Below are positions 16,072 to 49,872 of a stretch of DNA of 56,949 nucleotides, piece after piece. The notes beneath the pieces were generated by a model. That model had not been told where the DNA came from. It did not search any database and saw only the letters and a list, made by a program, of their open reading frames with translations. The position numbers and the translations under genes are program-made. The stretch lies in the IMG/VR virus record IMGVR_UViG_3300037440_000905, positions 1-56,949 of that record; one strand, written 5' to 3'. This DNA comes from a virus (taxonomy: Duplodnaviria; Caudoviricetes). Each line of letters begins with the position of its first letter. The stretch's first letter is position 1.

Positions 16072-16154
16072 TGCAAAACAACTGTTGACGACAAAAAGTG
16101 AACGTGCCACGTTTTCACTCTTAGTGGATGCTCATATTGGTTGGTTCTTCATGG

Positions 16155-16183
16155 ACCCCCTTCGTAACTGAAGGGGGTTTTTT
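16155..16183 (+). terminator. Intrinsic terminator closing the tail/ejection operon
   Basis: acccccttc-gtaact-gaagggggt followed by a T run. Confidence 0.8.
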
Positions 16184-21483: not shown

Positions 21484-22368
21484 ATGCAAAAGTTCAAACA
21501 ATGGATCGCAGAGAATAAAGGAAAGTTGATCGTCTATTGGATCGCGACGTTCGTTAATTGCGCAGCTTTCGGTTGGTTCGGAAATTGGGTAATGGCGATA
21601 GTTATGCAAGCAATTTTATCGATCTGGTTTTACTTGGATTGCGCTCTTAAGAAGTCCCTATCGATCGCGCTCGCATTCCTCATAGCGTGTCTGCCCTACC
21701 AAGCCAGAGCGCAGGAGGAAGGCGGTGATGGTGGAGGCGCTCCTGCAGTGGTCGTGATCGTTGTAACATGCGTTGCAGGAGTATGCATTTACAAGCTTGC
21801 AAGGTTTTGCCAGAAACATTTTCCAAACACCCAGTCTACCACCAACTCTCCGCCTGATGAATTGACTGGCAGCGTTGACGGATCTGAGGTGGCCTCCTGG
21901 AATATTGGGAACCTGGGTTCATGCGCTGGATTAGACGATCATCCGTCAGTGACGTTTGCCATTAATGGAATCGTTTATCCAGCGAACGTAAAGCGTGGCC
22001 CTAGGATCGTCAGCACGGTCACAGTTGGATCCGGCAAGGAGAATTATCTGACATGGTCAGAGTTCGTTGCTGAAGCCAAATCCTATGGAGTCGTGGTGAG
22101 TGGCGTGGGTGATGGATCTCAGTATTTCGCCAGGGATGGGAAGCACATTGATTCGAGTGAATCGATCATCCATTTCGACCAGAACACCATGACAGTGGGC
22201 GTTTACTCACCAGGCTCAAAAACCCACATGGTTGAGGTGTCGCGCTCCACCGATCTGGTGAACTGGGAACGGTTCATGTTGATGGAGGTGGAAGAGAATC
22301 GGAACTTTCAGGTGGTCGACACAACGGCTACTGGCCAGATGTTCTACGGGATGAGAATCGTAGAGTGA
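21484..22368 (+). CDS. Multi-pass membrane protein with C-terminal STDLxxW...FY module
   Basis: Three to four hydrophobic segments in the first ~105 aa; C-terminal VEVSRSTDLVNWERF...QMFYGMR. Confidence 0.6.
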   Translation: MQKFKQWIAENKGKLIVYWIATFVNCAAFGWFGNWVMAIVMQAILSIWFYLDCALKKSLSIALAFLIACLPYQARAQEEGGDGGGAPAVVVIVVTCVAGVCIYKLARFCQKHFPNTQSTTNSPPDELTGSVDGSEVASWNIGNLGSCAGLDDHPSVTFAINGIVYPANVKRGPRIVSTVTVGSGKENYLTWSEFVAEAKSYGVVVSGVGDGSQYFARDGKHIDSSESIIHFDQNTMTVGVYSPGSKTHMVEVSRSTDLVNWERFMLMEVEENRNFQVVDTTATGQMFYGMRIVE

Positions 22369-22473
22369 AAACAAAACTGATCGGAAAAACCTTGGCAAAT
22401 CAAATTGAGGATGCATGATCTGGACCGTGGCTTCGAAAAAGCCGAGAGCAGAACTGCAAAGAACTTAGACTTT

Positions 22474-22560
22474 GCAGCGTTCAGCGGGTGGCCGGTTCGC
22501 CGGCAACGGGTGGCTCAGTTCTCCCCGAATTTTTCGCACCGGCTGGACGCTGCTTTTTTG
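22474..22560 (+). ncRNA. Structured leader / c4- or CI-like antisense RNA upstream of the replication initiator
   Basis: 17-bp closing stem gcagcgttcagcgggtg/caccggctggacgctgc followed by a T run; inner gccggTTCGccggc hairpin; exposed cagttct and tttttcg are complementary to upstream agaactg (22450-22456) and cgaaaaa (22434-22440). Confidence 0.55.
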
Positions 22561-22569
22561 TTCAAGCTT

Positions 22570-23250
22570 ATGAGCGATTCAAACGAAGAAAACCCACGTG
22601 TATTCAAGGGCATTTGGTTGCCGTATGAGATTGTAGAAGCGGACCTTACCTGGATGGAAAAGGCATTGTGGGGCATCGTCAGCTCTTTGGGACGCCACGA
22701 CCGGCCCTGTCACGCCTCGAACGCCTACCTTGCGGAGCACATGCAAACGACGGCAAACACCGTGGCAGGAATGCTTTCTAAACTGCGGAATTTGGGTTTC
22801 ATCGTGAACGGTTCGTTCGATGGCAGAACGCGCGAGATGCTGGCCGTGATTCCTGAAGTCCAGACAAGGCAGACTTTAGCACCTGCTAAAGGCAGCATTG
22901 AACCAGAGCTAAAGGCAGAATCGTCCTCTATTATACGTGATAGAAAAGTTGATAGAAAGGGTACGTGCGCGCGATTCGAGCCTCCATCTTTGGAGAACGT
23001 CCAAACCGAAGCAGCTCGGATCGGTTTGCCCGCAATCGAAGCTGAAAAATTCTTCAATTACTACGGATCCAACGGGTGGCGGGTTGGACGCAACCCAATG
23101 CGTTCCTGGCCAAGAGCAATGGCCAACTGGAAACTGAACGTTCGAAACTATGGCAACGACAATGGCAAAACCAATCCGCGACCTAATTCCTTCGGTCCTG
23201 ACCGAGATAAAAACACCTACGCCGCGCGTCGAGTTGAAAACAAGCCGTAA
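22570..23250 (+). CDS. Phage replication initiator (N-terminal winged HTH)
   Basis: FKGIWLP...CHASNAYLAEHM...LSKLRNLGFI HTH; C-terminal FFNYYGSNGWRVGRNPMRSW domain; followed by a DnaC-like loader. Confidence 0.8.
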   Translation: MSDSNEENPRVFKGIWLPYEIVEADLTWMEKALWGIVSSLGRHDRPCHASNAYLAEHMQTTANTVAGMLSKLRNLGFIVNGSFDGRTREMLAVIPEVQTRQTLAPAKGSIEPELKAESSSIIRDRKVDRKGTCARFEPPSLENVQTEAARIGLPAIEAEKFFNYYGSNGWRVGRNPMRSWPRAMANWKLNVRNYGNDNGKTNPRPNSFGPDRDKNTYAARRVENKP

Positions 23251-23809
23251 ATGGCGGCAGAAATGGTTCAAGCTAGATGAGAGCAACGCGGACGTTCGAC
23301 GTATGGCCCAACGCGCTGAGTTATTCGCCAAGCGTTTTTTCCTCAATGATCGAACTGGACCAATGCTTCTGGTGATGTGCGGGGACAATGGTTGTGGAAA
23401 GACTCACACGGCCAAAGGCATCTTCGGTTATTGCCAGGCCGTGGGGGGTATGGCGTGGGAGAGTGGACACTGGAAAGGGCATCGTATTCCCGCTTCGGTA
23501 TTCCAGGATTGGTCGACGCTGGCGGACACCAACGATTACACGGGTCGCTGGCTGGACCTCATCGATGCGCAATTGACCGTCATCGACGATGTGGGGGCTG
23601 AAGTCGATAAATTCCGTAGCGCAGTTCCCAAGGAGAATTTGCGTCGAATGCTCGGAGAACGGGAAGGCAGGTTTACCGTCGTCACGACCAATACTCCACC
23701 CGATCAGTGGAGGGAGCAATGGGATGCGAGAGTAGAGGACAGGCTCCACCGAAAAAGCGAGATTATTGAACTAGCCAACACGCCGAGCTTTTACAGGGAC
23801 AAAAAATGA
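23150..23809 (+). CDS. DnaC/IstB-like AAA+ helicase loader
   Basis: Walker A GDNGCGKTH, Walker B TVIDDVG, TVVTTN, RVEDRL; overlaps the initiator gene. Confidence 0.85.
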   Translation: MATTMAKPIRDLIPSVLTEIKTPTPRVELKTSRKWRQKWFKLDESNADVRRMAQRAELFAKRFFLNDRTGPMLLVMCGDNGCGKTHTAKGIFGYCQAVGGMAWESGHWKGHRIPASVFQDWSTLADTNDYTGRWLDLIDAQLTVIDDVGAEVDKFRSAVPKENLRRMLGEREGRFTVVTTNTPPDQWREQWDARVEDRLHRKSEIIELANTPSFYRDKK

Positions 23810-24006
23810 AAGTCAGACTTCTGCAAGACATCAACGACACGGGGACTGAGAAGTCCCACAAGTTTTTAGACATCAACACCAAGGATCCGGTATGGATTCC
23901 GCGTTCGTTGGTGTATCACATCTCCCGGGACAAGCCCGACACCCAGGGTCTGCGCGTGTGTGTCGCCGAAGTGGAGGACTGGTTTGCGGAAAGAGAAGAA
24001 CTGTAA
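23806..24006 (+). CDS. Small hypothetical protein
   Basis: VWIPRS...VEDWFAEREEL motif; ATGA coupling. Confidence 0.55.
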   Translation: MKVRLLQDINDTGTEKSHKFLDINTKDPVWIPRSLVYHISRDKPDTQGLRVCVAEVEDWFAEREEL

Positions 24007-24028
24007 TCGAAAAACTACGCGAAAAACT

Positions 24029-24409
24029 ATGGAACTAAGAGAAATCAGAGAACTGTTGAAAAGCGGGAGGCCTATCCAGGTCCGGGTTCAAGACGAATTC
24101 CAGAACTGGGTCACCCTGCTGGAGGATTACCACACCAATTTCTACCTGAATGCAGACATGTATCGAGTTGAGCCAGAAACAAAAACCATCCCCTTCGATC
24201 AGGGATCGTGGAAGGAGTTGGGGCCGGTGGTGTGGATCAGAAGTAGAAGAGGCAGCGAGTTAAAACCGGTGTTTCAAGTTGGGATAATTTACGAAGACTC
24301 AATCTATACCGACAATGGGAATAGAACCTGGATCCAACTCCAAGAAGAGTTCGAATACTCCACCGACCTAAAAACCTGGCACCCGTGCCATCGCACCATC
24401 GAATCCTAG
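24029..24409 (+). CDS. Hypothetical protein
   Basis: YRVEPE motif and C-terminal EYSTDLKTWHPC. Confidence 0.55.
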   Translation: MELREIRELLKSGRPIQVRVQDEFQNWVTLLEDYHTNFYLNADMYRVEPETKTIPFDQGSWKELGPVVWIRSRRGSELKPVFQVGIIYEDSIYTDNGNRTWIQLQEEFEYSTDLKTWHPCHRTIES

Positions 24410-41142: not shown

Positions 41143-42092
41143 GATGGCTTTTGATCAGCTCAATCCATAATCCAGGTGATTCATTCGCCAGATTTGGCGT
41201 CGAAGATCTCATCCGGGAAATCGACCAGGAGGCTCTCTTCCATGTGCTCGACAAGGAAAACCCTGACGCATGGAATCCCGTGCCATTCGATCGAGCCGTT
41301 CTTTGCGGCATGCCGGCGCTGTGGAGCCACGAGAATCAGAGCAGTACTGAAATTTGGTGGTGGGAAAAGCTTTTCGACGGTTGGATCACGGAAAACCCAA
41401 AACGTTTCATCGCGATCGGAATCGGTGAAGTGGTTGGAAAAGACGGAATTCACGATCCCAAAGCTTGGCAGGACGCCGTTGAAGTTCTGGTGTCCAAAAG
41501 TTTTGCCATCACCAGCCGCCATGAACTCACTCTCCACGACCCAAGAATCATTCAAGGCATTTGCCCGTCGTTCTTCGTGAACAGTCCAACATTCGATCCC
41601 GAGAAGAAACCACGAAGCTACTGCAATTTGATGCGCCATGGAGCCCATGATCCTTTCATGAACCCAGAGGAATCTAGGGTCTGGGAAAAATCGGTAGTCC
41701 CGCTTGCAAAAAAGTTGATCGAAGACGGATACGGATTTGTCGCCCATGATGCCGATGAAGTGCGCTTTGCGGCGGAACTGGGCTTCACCGATATCCATAT
41801 TTTCTTTGATCACCGGGAATACCTCAAACTTTACAAACAGTGCGACCGCTTCGTCGGCAACAGAATCCATGGCGCCGCCATGGCTTACCTCTTTGGAGCG
41901 CAAGTCATGTGTGTCGCCTATGATTCCAGAATCTACCTTCTTAGGGCGGTTGGAGGAAAAGCCATTTATCCCAGTCAAATGGACTGGGATCTGTACGAAT
42001 TCGACACGTTACGAAATCTGAGTATCATCCATCTCGAACGTCAGAAGACCAAATCGTTGTTGAAAGCGTTCATGGATTACAATGACCACTGA
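41139..42092 (+). CDS. Polysaccharide pyruvyltransferase-like protein
   Basis: NPGD at the N-terminus, IGIG, SR...CPS, VGNRIHGAAMAYLFG, DSR. Confidence 0.7.
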   Translation: MRWLLISSIHNPGDSFARFGVEDLIREIDQEALFHVLDKENPDAWNPVPFDRAVLCGMPALWSHENQSSTEIWWWEKLFDGWITENPKRFIAIGIGEVVGKDGIHDPKAWQDAVEVLVSKSFAITSRHELTLHDPRIIQGICPSFFVNSPTFDPEKKPRSYCNLMRHGAHDPFMNPEESRVWEKSVVPLAKKLIEDGYGFVAHDADEVRFAAELGFTDIHIFFDHREYLKLYKQCDRFVGNRIHGAAMAYLFGAQVMCVAYDSRIYLLRAVGGKAIYPSQMDWDLYEFDTLRNLSIIHLERQKTKSLLKAFMDYNDH

Positions 42093-42097
42093 ACCGA

Positions 42098-42113
42098 TGT
42101 TCCACGTGGAACA
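42098..42113. promoter_or_regulatory. parS centromere-like site (ParB-binding palindrome)
   Basis: TGTTCCACGTGGAACA matches the chromosomal parS consensus; embedded in a 28-bp perfect palindrome (42092-42119) followed by Ts, so it may also act as a terminator. Confidence 0.75.
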
Positions 42114-42174
42114 TCGGTTTTTCGCGTCAGGAAGTTCTTGAGCTTGGAGGCTTTGGGGCGTAAACCATTATCCT

Positions 42175-47992: not shown

Positions 47993-48400
47993 ATGCCTGC
48001 CACCCTTCCCGCCGAACTTTTCTCCCAAGCCAACTGCTTTCGCTGCTACGGAGATGCCGACACGACCCAACTCTTACGCCTGGCCATTTTGGCCCAAACC
48101 TTAACCACCCTTGACGCCATGGCCGCCACCGATCCACAAAGCCTTTTGGAGTACGCCAAATGTTTTCGCTGCTACAGCAATGGAAATACTGCTGATCTGA
48201 TGGAATTGGCGTTGCTCGACCAAATCAGCCAGACCGTGACCGGAGGAGGCGGAGGCGGAAGCGGACTGGCCGGGGCCGGAGATCCGGAAGGATCCGTGAC
48301 TGCCGCCGCAGGAACCACCTACGTCAACACGACGGACGAATCGTTTTGGGTGAAGAAAACCGGAGCCGGCGACACCGGCTGGATTGAATTGATCGCATGA
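47993..48400 (+). CDS. Minor virion protein with tandem CFRCY repeats and a fibre-type C-terminal domain
   Basis: Two CFRCY repeats, Gly linker, GDPEGSVTAAAGTTYVN...WVKKTGAGDTGW. Confidence 0.6.
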   Translation: MPATLPAELFSQANCFRCYGDADTTQLLRLAILAQTLTTLDAMAATDPQSLLEYAKCFRCYSNGNTADLMELALLDQISQTVTGGGGGGSGLAGAGDPEGSVTAAAGTTYVNTTDESFWVKKTGAGDTGWIELIA

Positions 48401-49872
48401 AAAACTCCAAATTGCTACTGACCGCGGCCTTCTGTTTCGTCGCAACGTTCCTGATCGCCCAACCCATCCAAAAGAGCGGATACACACTCACCCCAGCCGG
48501 CCAGACCATCAACGCGGCAGGCGGAAGCATAACCAATCTGAATGTTCTCAGAATCACCGGAACCGCCGGCAATGTGGCTCTGACCAATGCCAACAGCACG
48601 AACTGGATCACCGACGTTTTGAACATCGGAACCCCGGACGGCGCCGACATGATTCCGATCGTCGACGTATCCACTGGTTCACGGAAGTACGCATTGGCCA
48701 CTGAGTTCTTAGCCGGGGCCGGTGACGTCACGACCGCTCAGTTAAACAATGCATCGAACGTTCTGCGAACTGACATTACCAACCTGCAGGGTGCTACCAA
48801 CGGTCAAAATTCGAGGCTTAATGGGCACGACACGGACATTGCCAATTTGCAGGGAGCCACCAACGGGCTCGTCGCGGACATTCAATCGACGTCCAACAAG
48901 GTGGTTGTGGCGGCCGGAACCGGCGGAATTACCGTCACATCGAGTGGCGCAGGTGGAGTTCAGACATTCACCGTGAATGACGATGACGCCGGAGGTTCAA
49001 CGAACAACGTCGCCACGGGAGTGCTTTTTAATACGACTTCAAATCTTCTGACTTTACTTGGCGGCCTGGTCATCCCTCCACGCCCGGGAACGGCCACCAT
49101 CGATGTCACCACGAATTTGACATTTTATTTCACCGTTGGATCGGATACCAACATCACGATTGCCGGAGCTTCGTCCAATGTCCCGCCGGTCGAGTTGGTT
49201 TTTACGCAGGATTCAGTGGGAGCACATACGATCACAATCGGAGGTGTCGGAGAGATTCATGCGGCGGACACAAACGCTCTCGGTGAAACGATGCTTTCAG
49301 TTTATGGGTGGGCCGGCCGGACCAATGCAGTTCCGATTTCAACGCCCGCCGTCCTCCTTACGAGCTACCTCGCCAAGGGCGGCGTCCCGGCTTCGAGCAC
49401 CACCAACTTCGGCGTCATCAACCTGGCTGAGGGGGAGGTTCTCATGGGGACCAATCACGTCAATCATCCTTTCGGGGTGGCGGCGGTGAACATTCCTGCG
49501 GGTGGCGGATCCGCCGGTCCAACAACCAACGCGCCGCCCTACACGGTTCCAATTATCGGCACGAATTTCATCCTGGATTGGCTGGCTCTTGGCGCGACCA
49601 ATGACGTTATCTTGACACTCTCTGCGCATTCCGGACTCCTCAACACTAACATTATTCCAGGCAAGTTCATCCGCATGGCAATCGAGCAGCCAAACGAGGG
49701 CTTCACCTACCTTGTACCGAACACGAATTACTTCGGACCAAACTTCAGGCCGACATCGGTCCAAACCGGGATTACGCAAAGCACGAATGGAAATTATGTG
49801 GATTTCATTGCTCTTTATGGGTTCCGAACCAACGCCGTTCTGAGCGGCCAAAACTGGGGAAGTGAGCCATGA
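48397..49872 (+). CDS. Fibre-like protein with a Sec-type signal peptide
   Basis: MKNSKLLLTAAFCFVATFLIA|Q; repeated DIxNLQGATNG coiled coil; LVFTQDSVGAHTIT fibre-type motif; Thr/Asn-rich. Confidence 0.6.
   Translation: MKNSKLLLTAAFCFVATFLIAQPIQKSGYTLTPAGQTINAAGGSITNLNVLRITGTAGNVALTNANSTNWITDVLNIGTPDGADMIPIVDVSTGSRKYALATEFLAGAGDVTTAQLNNASNVLRTDITNLQGATNGQNSRLNGHDTDIANLQGATNGLVADIQSTSNKVVVAAGTGGITVTSSGAGGVQTFTVNDDDAGGSTNNVATGVLFNTTSNLLTLLGGLVIPPRPGTATIDVTTNLTFYFTVGSDTNITIAGASSNVPPVELVFTQDSVGAHTITIGGVGEIHAADTNALGETMLSVYGWAGRTNAVPISTPAVLLTSYLAKGGVPASSTTNFGVINLAEGEVLMGTNHVNHPFGVAAVNIPAGGGSAGPTTNAPPYTVPIIGTNFILDWLALGATNDVILTLSAHSGLLNTNIIPGKFIRMAIEQPNEGFTYLVPNTNYFGPNFRPTSVQTGITQSTNGNYVDFIALYGFRTNAVLSGQNWGSEP

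Follow-up and report, generated by a model that had tools for sequence, protein, structure and literature searches.

In the leader of the replication-initiator gene rep of an uncultured sediment phage, we identified an RNA element that we lean towards reading, from its sequence and predicted fold, as a divergent antisense RNA of the C4/CI type that is joined to an intrinsic terminator. The phage is represented by the virus record IMGVR_UViG_3300037440_000905 (Duplodnaviria; Caudoviricetes), a complete virus record of 56,949 base pairs (bp) with direct terminal repeats, which was analysed over its whole length and is hereafter called the window. The element is located in a 201-bp gap of the plus strand, between an open reading frame (ORF) of 294 amino acids (aa) that belongs to no recognised family (21484-22368, plus strand) and rep itself (22570-23250, plus strand, 226 aa). 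The evidence in favour consists of the architecture of the element, the placement of its two complementary segments, the sites for these segments in the leader upstream, the profile tests, the bias of the fold towards the sense strand, a position in the operon like that of the P4 CI RNA and a second pair of sites at the ATG of 24029.

The minimum-free-energy fold of the element (22474-22553, plus strand, 80 nucleotides (nt)) is a three-way junction. Its closing stem counts 17 positions (arms 22474-22490 and 22537-22553), i.e., 15 Watson-Crick pairs, one G-U pair (22481/22546) and one G/G mismatch (22486/22541), and encloses a first hairpin of 5 bp with a UUCG loop (22491-22504), a second hairpin of 6 bp with an 8-nt, b'-like loop (22507-22527, loop 22514-22521) and a 9-nt single-stranded junction that carries an a'-like segment (22528-22536). 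The GC-rich stem ends at 22553 and is directly followed by a U6 run (T6 in the DNA, 22554-22559), 10 nt before the rep ATG at 22570, which is the layout of an intrinsic terminator; the consensus terminator scanner missed it because the part enclosed by the stem exceeds the 8 loop bases that the scanner allows. Upstream, a competing hairpin of 8 bp (22454-22461 with 22470-22477, plus strand) occupies the four bases of the closing stem nearest the U run. A sequence-only reading of this DNA had described the same three-way junction, with its 17-bp stem (one G-U, one mismatch), UUCG hairpin and U run before the ATG, as well as the competing hairpin overlapping the base of the long stem, and all of these were recovered at the same coordinates.

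The 87-nt stretch holding the element displays a minimum free energy of -46.1 kcal/mol (z -4.46) that was equalled by none of 200 shuffles, and it ranks first among the 22,746 segments of 87 nt taken from both strands of the whole genome after GC correction. The minus strand folds less well (-39.3 kcal/mol, z -3.31), the plus strand being better by 6.8 kcal/mol. Note that an 11-nt direct repeat (10 of 11 positions identical) is present at 22482 and 22504, 22 nt apart and within 22482-22514, providing the 5' strand for both the closing stem and hairpin 2.

Likeness to C4 RNAs

In the Rfam C4 consensus, as printed on phage P1, the closing stem has 7+10 bp and a single unpaired position; it encloses a 5-bp hairpin with UUCG as its loop, another 5-bp hairpin whose loop counts 12 nt, and a 7-nt junction, after which comes the 3' strand. 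The RNA of the window is composed of identical parts in identical order, namely a closing stem of 12+4 bp around its one mismatch, a 5-bp UUCG hairpin, a 2-nt spacer, a hairpin of 6 bp whose loop counts 8 nt, and a junction of 9 nt. This correspondence extends to the putative pairing segments: according to the annotation and sequence of P1, the junction is the complement of a2 and the loop of hairpin 2 holds the complement of b2, and the two complementary segments of the window occupy these same two places. The b'-like loop and the a'-like junction of the window RNA are complementary to paired sites in their own transcript.

The likeness was quantified with three profiles: R1 was derived from the window RNA itself, R2 from a single true C4 RNA and R3 from six structure-aligned C4 RNAs (phages P7, SJ46, ECO95, an Acinetobacter phage, N15 and P4, in which the C4 RNA was located with Rfam). 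When the window was searched on both strands with the speed filters off, the element was the top match of R2 with 19.2 bits (E 0.021; next match 14.4 bits) and of R3 with 22.7 bits (E 0.0026; next match 13.4 bits), these E-values being rough owing to a short calibration. Both alignments span all 88 model positions, and the score rose from the one-member to the six-member model. As controls, R3 was run on 62.6 kb of sequence, ten further rep leaders with strong folds among it, and on the relative G001 (55.4 kb); in these 118 kb of control DNA the scores did not exceed 12.4 and 12.5 bits, respectively. With the rest of the window counted in, the background thus stays at or below 13.4 bits over ~175 kb. 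In the reverse direction, R1 run on 3 kb of P1 with the filters off found c4 at 48343-48423 (annotated at 48343-48419) with 13.8 bits and E 0.01, as the second of 17 matches, behind a simple terminator hairpin. These scores speak for likeness; they do not prove common descent.

Complementary sites and a possible feedback loop

Upstream of the element, the leader contains two 7-nt sites on the plus strand that are exact complements of its exposed segments, as the sequence-only reading had reported and as our analysis confirmed. Site A (22434-22440, a1-like) would pair with the junction at 22530-22536 (duplex -4.7 kcal/mol) and site B (22450-22456, b1-like) with 22516-22522 (duplex -8.0 kcal/mol); they are 9 nt apart and lie 18-40 nt upstream of the 5' end of the RNA. 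Folding places most of site A in the loop of a small 5-bp hairpin (22428-22442, plus strand), and a second copy of site B, matching at 8 of 9 positions, is found at 22460-22468 (plus strand, duplex -6.7 kcal/mol). A shuffle test comparing the exposed part of the RNA with the 54-nt upstream leader was designed after the sites were seen: in 20,000 dinucleotide shuffles, one or more 7-mer matches arose 3,949 times, two separate matches 114 times, and two in antiparallel-consistent order 54 times (~0.3-0.6% for a double match). The genome also contains the site-B 7-mer more often than expected (16 vs 5.2 copies), an enrichment that was set aside as evidence because the copies mostly lie on coding strands, where, in our reading, they fit Glu-Leu codons.

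Downstream, the best site for the junction segment in 22554-22800 is an a2-like one in rep codons 5-7 (22583-22589, plus strand), with six Watson-Crick pairs and one G-U pair (-5.2 kcal/mol); no b2-like partner was found near it. Another A-B pair, which makes a candidate target in trans, is located at 24020-24055 (plus strand) and consists of a 7-nt and an 8-nt site, 21-22 nt apart, spanning the ATG at 24029. It is the sole further A-B pair in the genome (1 vs 0.01 expected; one of 100 shuffles had a match). This ATG lies 1.45 kb downstream in the same transcription direction and opens a gene of 126 aa (24029-24409) that matched no family. In addition, an exact 10-nt direct repeat (24008-24029, copies 12 nt apart), each copy of which contains an A-type 7-mer, fills the 22-nt gap between the stop codon of a 66-aa gene (23806-24006) and the ATG at 24029.

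Taken as a mechanism, these elements would work as follows. Transcription would enter the leader either from a weak promoter-like site (TTGGCA-16-CATGAT, 9 of 12 consensus positions, 22392-22419, plus strand), from which a leader of ~143 nt would start near 22426, or by read-through from the 294-aa ORF. Most transcripts would then stop at the U run and release an RNA with a C4-like body, whose two exposed segments could pair with sites A and B of new leader transcripts, and possibly also with the pair of sites at ATG 24029 and the lone site within rep codons 5-7. The effect would be sustained termination or reduced translation, which would make the expression of rep and of the loader gene behind it self-limiting. 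Such a loop follows the logic of P4, whose CI RNA derives from the leader of the operon with the replication gene. Its outcome could be immunity, copy-number control or timing, and the minimal plasmid-prophage maintenance system suggested by the sequence-only reading is likewise conjectural. We put forward, as a tentative proposal that we hold possible, a C4/CI-type regulator whose closing stem is itself the intrinsic terminator, each termination event releasing another copy of the regulator that would act on the next leaders and on the start region at 24029; this would constitute a protein-free feedback loop on the initiator/loader operon, in a lineage without close relatives, with genes that mostly have no Shine-Dalgarno site, and possibly outside Proteobacteria. 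Promoter-like sites as such are not enriched in the region (6 vs 8.7 in shuffles), and the -35 of the 22392-22419 site lies at -178 from the ATG.

Folding calculations on the leader gave a mixed picture. In the free leader, the competing hairpin forms with a probability of 0.64, and the value for the four pairs of the closing stem that border the U run is 0.28. A nested antiterminator in which sites A and B pair within one molecule was rejected, as it costs 23 kcal/mol. The thermodynamic model neither supports nor excludes the mechanism, because blocking site B and blocking an unrelated control segment had equal effects and because the effect was reversed with a longer 5' end; the values are given below.

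Several results weigh against the C4/CI-type reading. The curated models are silent: a scan of the whole window at Rfam gathering scores gave no match to C4, c4-a1b1 or isrK (the C4 model, RF01695, has a gathering score of 45 bits, and the speed filters may have lost a weak match), and even at E ≤ 10 none of the three matched 22200-22800 (601 nt) or 22465-22565 (101 nt). This was the Infernal check that the sequence-only reading had put forward for its own claim, and it came back empty, while the same settings recovered P1 (C4 68.8, c4-a1b1 51.0 and isrK 35.1 bits) and the C4 RNA of six other phages (58.4-80.7 bits). An upstream a1/b1 element (RF03163) or IsrK-like element (RF01394) was likewise not matched at E ≤ 10, and all seven true loci have one or both. 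Under our own profiles, 22.7 bits is far below the 43.5-68.6 bits that true members reach with R2, and any branched model will tend to favour whichever branched fold is the most stable in a genome. At the 3' end, a U6 run stands in place of the CCACC-type tail of the C4 consensus, and the stretch from the RNA to the start of rep contains no a2/b2 pair. Both pairings are short (-4.7 and -8.0 kcal/mol), and with the exposed region taken as one 32-nt probe the leader site is average (-17.5 vs a genome mean of -17.3). In nascent transcripts, the probability of nested A and B pairing never exceeds 0.125; with site B blocked, that of the complete terminator stem goes only from 0.28 to 0.52, as it does with the unrelated control block, and with the leader 5' end at 22369 the effect of the site-B block reverses. 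No homologous leader was found in any search, which leaves the fold without covariation evidence. Finally, an integrase, repressor, ParA or ParB was not found in the 34 of 68 mechanical ORFs that were scanned, a blank that proves little because most scanned ORFs match no family. Altogether, what stands of the c4/CI-like claim is the part-by-part architecture, the top rank under R3 and the reverse match to P1 c4; the support expected from the curated Rfam models did not materialise.

Relatives, start of rep and alternative explanations

The searches for relatives returned mainly the C-terminal part of Rep. No match was found by blastn of 21484-23809 against phage records, nor in viral contigs for the 294-aa ORF or for an exact 24-mer of the RNA. 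RF01695 was recorded in 0 of 3 genomes and in 0 of 151 genomes sampled from one phylum, but also in none of 14 control genomes, which deprives these counts of weight. The Rep protein itself matched viral contigs (43 loci), metagenome contigs (80 kept of 119) and genome contigs (70 loci), with only the C-terminal domain in common, and its closest N-terminal relative (P0054) gave C-terminal matches only in viral contigs (4 loci). For the N-terminal relatives (80 loci), ten upstream sequences were inspected, and in nine of them rep was found directly behind another gene or in an unrelated context; the tenth (L160) has a long inverted repeat and a T run, and together with L145, which has a non-coding gap, it was put in the set of structured leaders. 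The R1 profile, run with default filters over 284 loci (1.49 Mb), found only the window element. A search with the loader protein provided one true relative, G001 (77% identity; the same as L205), in which a different rep gene is preceded by three iteron-like repeats of ~10 nt each (L205 1900-3100) and in which R3 found no C4-like RNA. Since the DNA likeness of G001 to the window starts only at 23159, rep module and leader have been exchanged as a unit, and it follows from the different rep, the missing C4-like RNA and this limit of shared DNA that the RNA travels with the rep module.

The wider Rep family offers a comparison set of 58 unique upstream regions, the window included, of which 11 are strongly structured. 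The ten others (L149, L153, L184, L188, L196, L145, L160, L169, L176 and L204) come from other phages with the same Rep N-terminal family, are unrelated in sequence and very stable, and reach z-scores over 150 nt down to -8.8; several of them show one or two hairpins enclosed by a long closing stem, plus a T run. They match no Rfam family and are not C4-like (R3 at most 12.4 bits). The better fold is that of the sense strand in all 11 structured leaders (mean difference -10.3 kcal/mol) vs 35 of the 47 others (-2.5 kcal/mol). Promoter-like sites with at least 10 of 12 positions are present ~175-215 nt upstream of the ATG in 7 of 11 structured leaders; with the -35 at -172 to -216, a called site occurs in 9 of the 11 structured leaders when the window is included (8 of the other 10). 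Of the 47 other leaders, 7 have such a site. A terminator-like hairpin with a T5 run within 70 nt upstream of the rep ATG was found in 5 of 57 other leaders vs 8 of 389 control ORF starts (Fisher p 0.016), an enrichment that remains soft because the controls include mechanical ORFs and the leaders are not independent. Structured, terminator-bearing leaders seem to be common before this type of Rep, which fits a plain attenuator as well as it fits the C4 reading.

Whether the region is a leader at all depends on the start of rep, which the gene caller placed at ATG 22411 (P0001, 279 aa) and which would make the leader coding. However, in an exhaustive HMMER search, residues 1-51 of this call were aligned by none of the 150 best relatives; in relatives that span the N-terminal domain the match begins at residues 52-64, most of them having their own residues 2-10 at residues 57-64 of the call, and in an alignment of 18 N-terminal relatives most begin at the methionine encoded at 22570. 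The codon score of 22411-22569 in the rep frame (+7.1 bits, vs -19 and -11 in the other two frames) is a weak signal: 6.8% of stop-free shuffles score as high, as do 19% of the open stretches taken from non-coding frames within real genes. Stop codons are absent from this frame from 22381 on, but shuffling leaves the 53 codons free of stops in 34% of cases and all 63 codons of the open stretch in 23%. Because of the starts of the homologues and the weak codon signal, 22570 was taken as the start of rep and 22411-22569 as leader, and the public call of 279 aa probably starts 53 codons too early. An N-terminal Rep extension of 53 codons read from ATG 22411, in which the fold would be incidental or would slow translation, has the open frame, the better score of that frame and the call itself in its favour, but it is very unlikely given the silence of the relatives, the ease with which openness and codon score arise by chance, and the fact that no other fold in the genome is as stable as that of this region, with U6 directly behind it.

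Among the rivals of the C4/CI-type reading, the one with the most weight is a plain intrinsic terminator or attenuator, i.e., an unusually large branched hairpin with no antisense role, with rep expressed by read-through and with the C4 likeness and the 7-mers due to chance; we hold it rather unlikely, though it is the main alternative. Such a terminator would end the upstream unit (the SbcC-like and UvrD-like genes and two uncharacterised ones) or a short leader. The GC-rich stem adjoining U6 is what it predicts; a canonical intrinsic terminator at 16153-16180 (12-bp stem, T run), after the 2051-aa gene of the same phage, is consistent with such signals being used, and the hairpins with T5 runs before other rep genes, the lack of C4 likeness in the other structured leaders, the silence of the Rfam C4 models and the equal change of the stem under the site-B and control blocks all agree with it. 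In contrast, it leaves unexplained the part-by-part match to C4 and the top rank under two C4 profiles, as well as two exact complements placed at the a'- and b'-equivalent positions. An explanation at the level of DNA, in which the inverted repeat is an operator for Rep or part of a replication origin, is improbable: a 17-bp inverted repeat directly upstream of an initiator gene with a helix-turn-helix (HTH) domain, the 11-nt direct repeat at 22482 and 22504 and the iteron-like repeats that G001 carries before its own, different rep would fit it, whereas the G-U pairs that make the plus-strand RNA more stable by 6.8 kcal/mol, the UUCG loop and U run, which are traits of RNA, the better sense-strand fold in all structured leaders, a GC skew with no turn at the element and the 7 genome copies of the 8-mer core of the direct repeat (2.7 expected; 2 of 100 shuffles reach 7) do not. 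Least probable is a hairpin for inter-cistron processing or stabilisation of the RNA, similar to the RNase III sites of T7 early mRNA and with neither terminator nor antisense role; a long irregular helix between two genes of the same strand would suit it, but the U run and the C4-like details remain unexplained, and a mismatched stem of 17 positions is short for RNase III.

The genes around the element are those of a replication region. The Rep protein comprises an N-terminal HTH domain and a C-terminal domain, its start being set by homologues, and it matches Pfam HTH_36, PHROG 2880 and 270 in the N-terminal HTH part and PHROG 15768 in the C-terminal part. In the genome contigs, the top match of the C-terminal domain is a metagenome-assembled genome of Verrucomicrobia (71% over 51 residues), nearly all other genome matches being Bacteroidota. 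A DnaC-like loader gene (23150-23809) comes after rep and an SSB gene further on, and genes for a UvrD-like helicase and an SbcC-like ATPase are located upstream of the gap; for the helicase, G001 is the sole near relative (68%), the others reaching at most 35%. Within rep, the linker between the two domains holds a 17-nt inverted repeat (22865-22900, 82% complementary, arms 2 nt apart) with a repeated 7-mer; lambda-type initiator genes carry the origin at a position equivalent to such an inter-domain linker. Elsewhere in the genome, a perfect 28-bp palindrome that resembles parS lies in an intergenic gap (42092-42119) and is among the most stable local folds, and the starts of 22 long ORFs have A-rich upstream regions, mostly without a Shine-Dalgarno motif. 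One sequencing run, possibly the source, was found to contain the stretch; it is a DNA run, and no RNA run is listed.

Significance and comparison with known systems

C4 and CI RNAs are the standard example of an RNA that confers immunity on phages through two short pairing segments, and C4 RNAs mature by processing with RNase P. If the C4/CI-type reading is true, the fold and the two-site logic would have been kept in the window while sequence likeness was nearly lost, and curated models would undercount such regulators. The variant would be one that ends in a terminator and sits directly on the replication-initiator gene of an uncultured sediment phage, and its ~150 nt would make a compact test case for the control of replication genes by RNA only; if the element is only a terminator, the finding is ordinary. 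In the limited collection of literature that was covered, no description was found of a replication-initiator gene preceded by a C4-type RNA that is joined to a terminator. A table in PMC2864571 lists the C4 family for Proteobacteria and phages only.

The lambda terminator tR1 gates entry into the replication genes O and P, as the U run would do for rep here; it is Rho-dependent and overcome by the N protein, whereas no antiterminator was recognised in the window. In the attenuation of rep transcription by antisense RNA in plasmids pT181 and pIP501, a terminator hairpin with a U run stands just before the rep start and competes with an upstream hairpin, as in the window. The countertranscripts of these plasmids come from the opposite strand of the leader; in contrast, the candidate regulator of the window is on the sense strand, and no minus-strand promoter-like site was found in 22400-22700, which is a weak test.

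The P4 CI RNA acts by premature termination of its own transcript. Like the window element, it is located in the leader of an operon, one that ends in the replication gene alpha, and it has complementary sites in its own transcript; unlike it, the P4 locus matches the Rfam C4 model with 74.9 bits and has an upstream isrK match of 60.8 bits, neither of which the window has. PMC3632133 gives the CI RNA as the C4 homologue of P4 and seqA as its IsrK-like element, describes similar systems in P1, P7 and N15, and likewise attributes the action of the CI RNA to premature termination of its own transcript.

A close counterpart is c4 of P1 and P7 (RF01695, with the a1/b1 element RF03163), which PMC12197685 describes as a 77-nt RNA that acts in trans by pairing around the ribosome-binding site of the ant mRNA. 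The differences are several: the window RNA has no curated-model match and little sequence in common with c4 outside the UUCG hairpin, it contains a 2-nt spacer between its hairpins and U6 instead of a CCACC-type tail, its b site lies 17 nt from the RNA vs 66 nt in P1, and it lacks an a2/b2 pair directly downstream, the gene behind it being a replication initiator and not icd/ant. In contrast, size (~80 nt vs 77 nt in P1) and layout are alike, with a three-way junction, a 17-bp closing stem interrupted once, a 5-bp UUCG hairpin set directly on the stem, a second-hairpin loop that carries b' and a single-stranded 3' junction that carries a'. The upstream sites follow suit, since P1 has a1 (7 nt, in a hairpin loop) and b1 (8 nt) 7 nt apart and the window has A and B (7 nt each) 9 nt apart, with A mostly in a loop and the same a-then-b order upstream of the RNA; similarly, the 22-nt gap between a2 and b2 of P1 compares with the 21-22 nt of the pair at ATG 24029.

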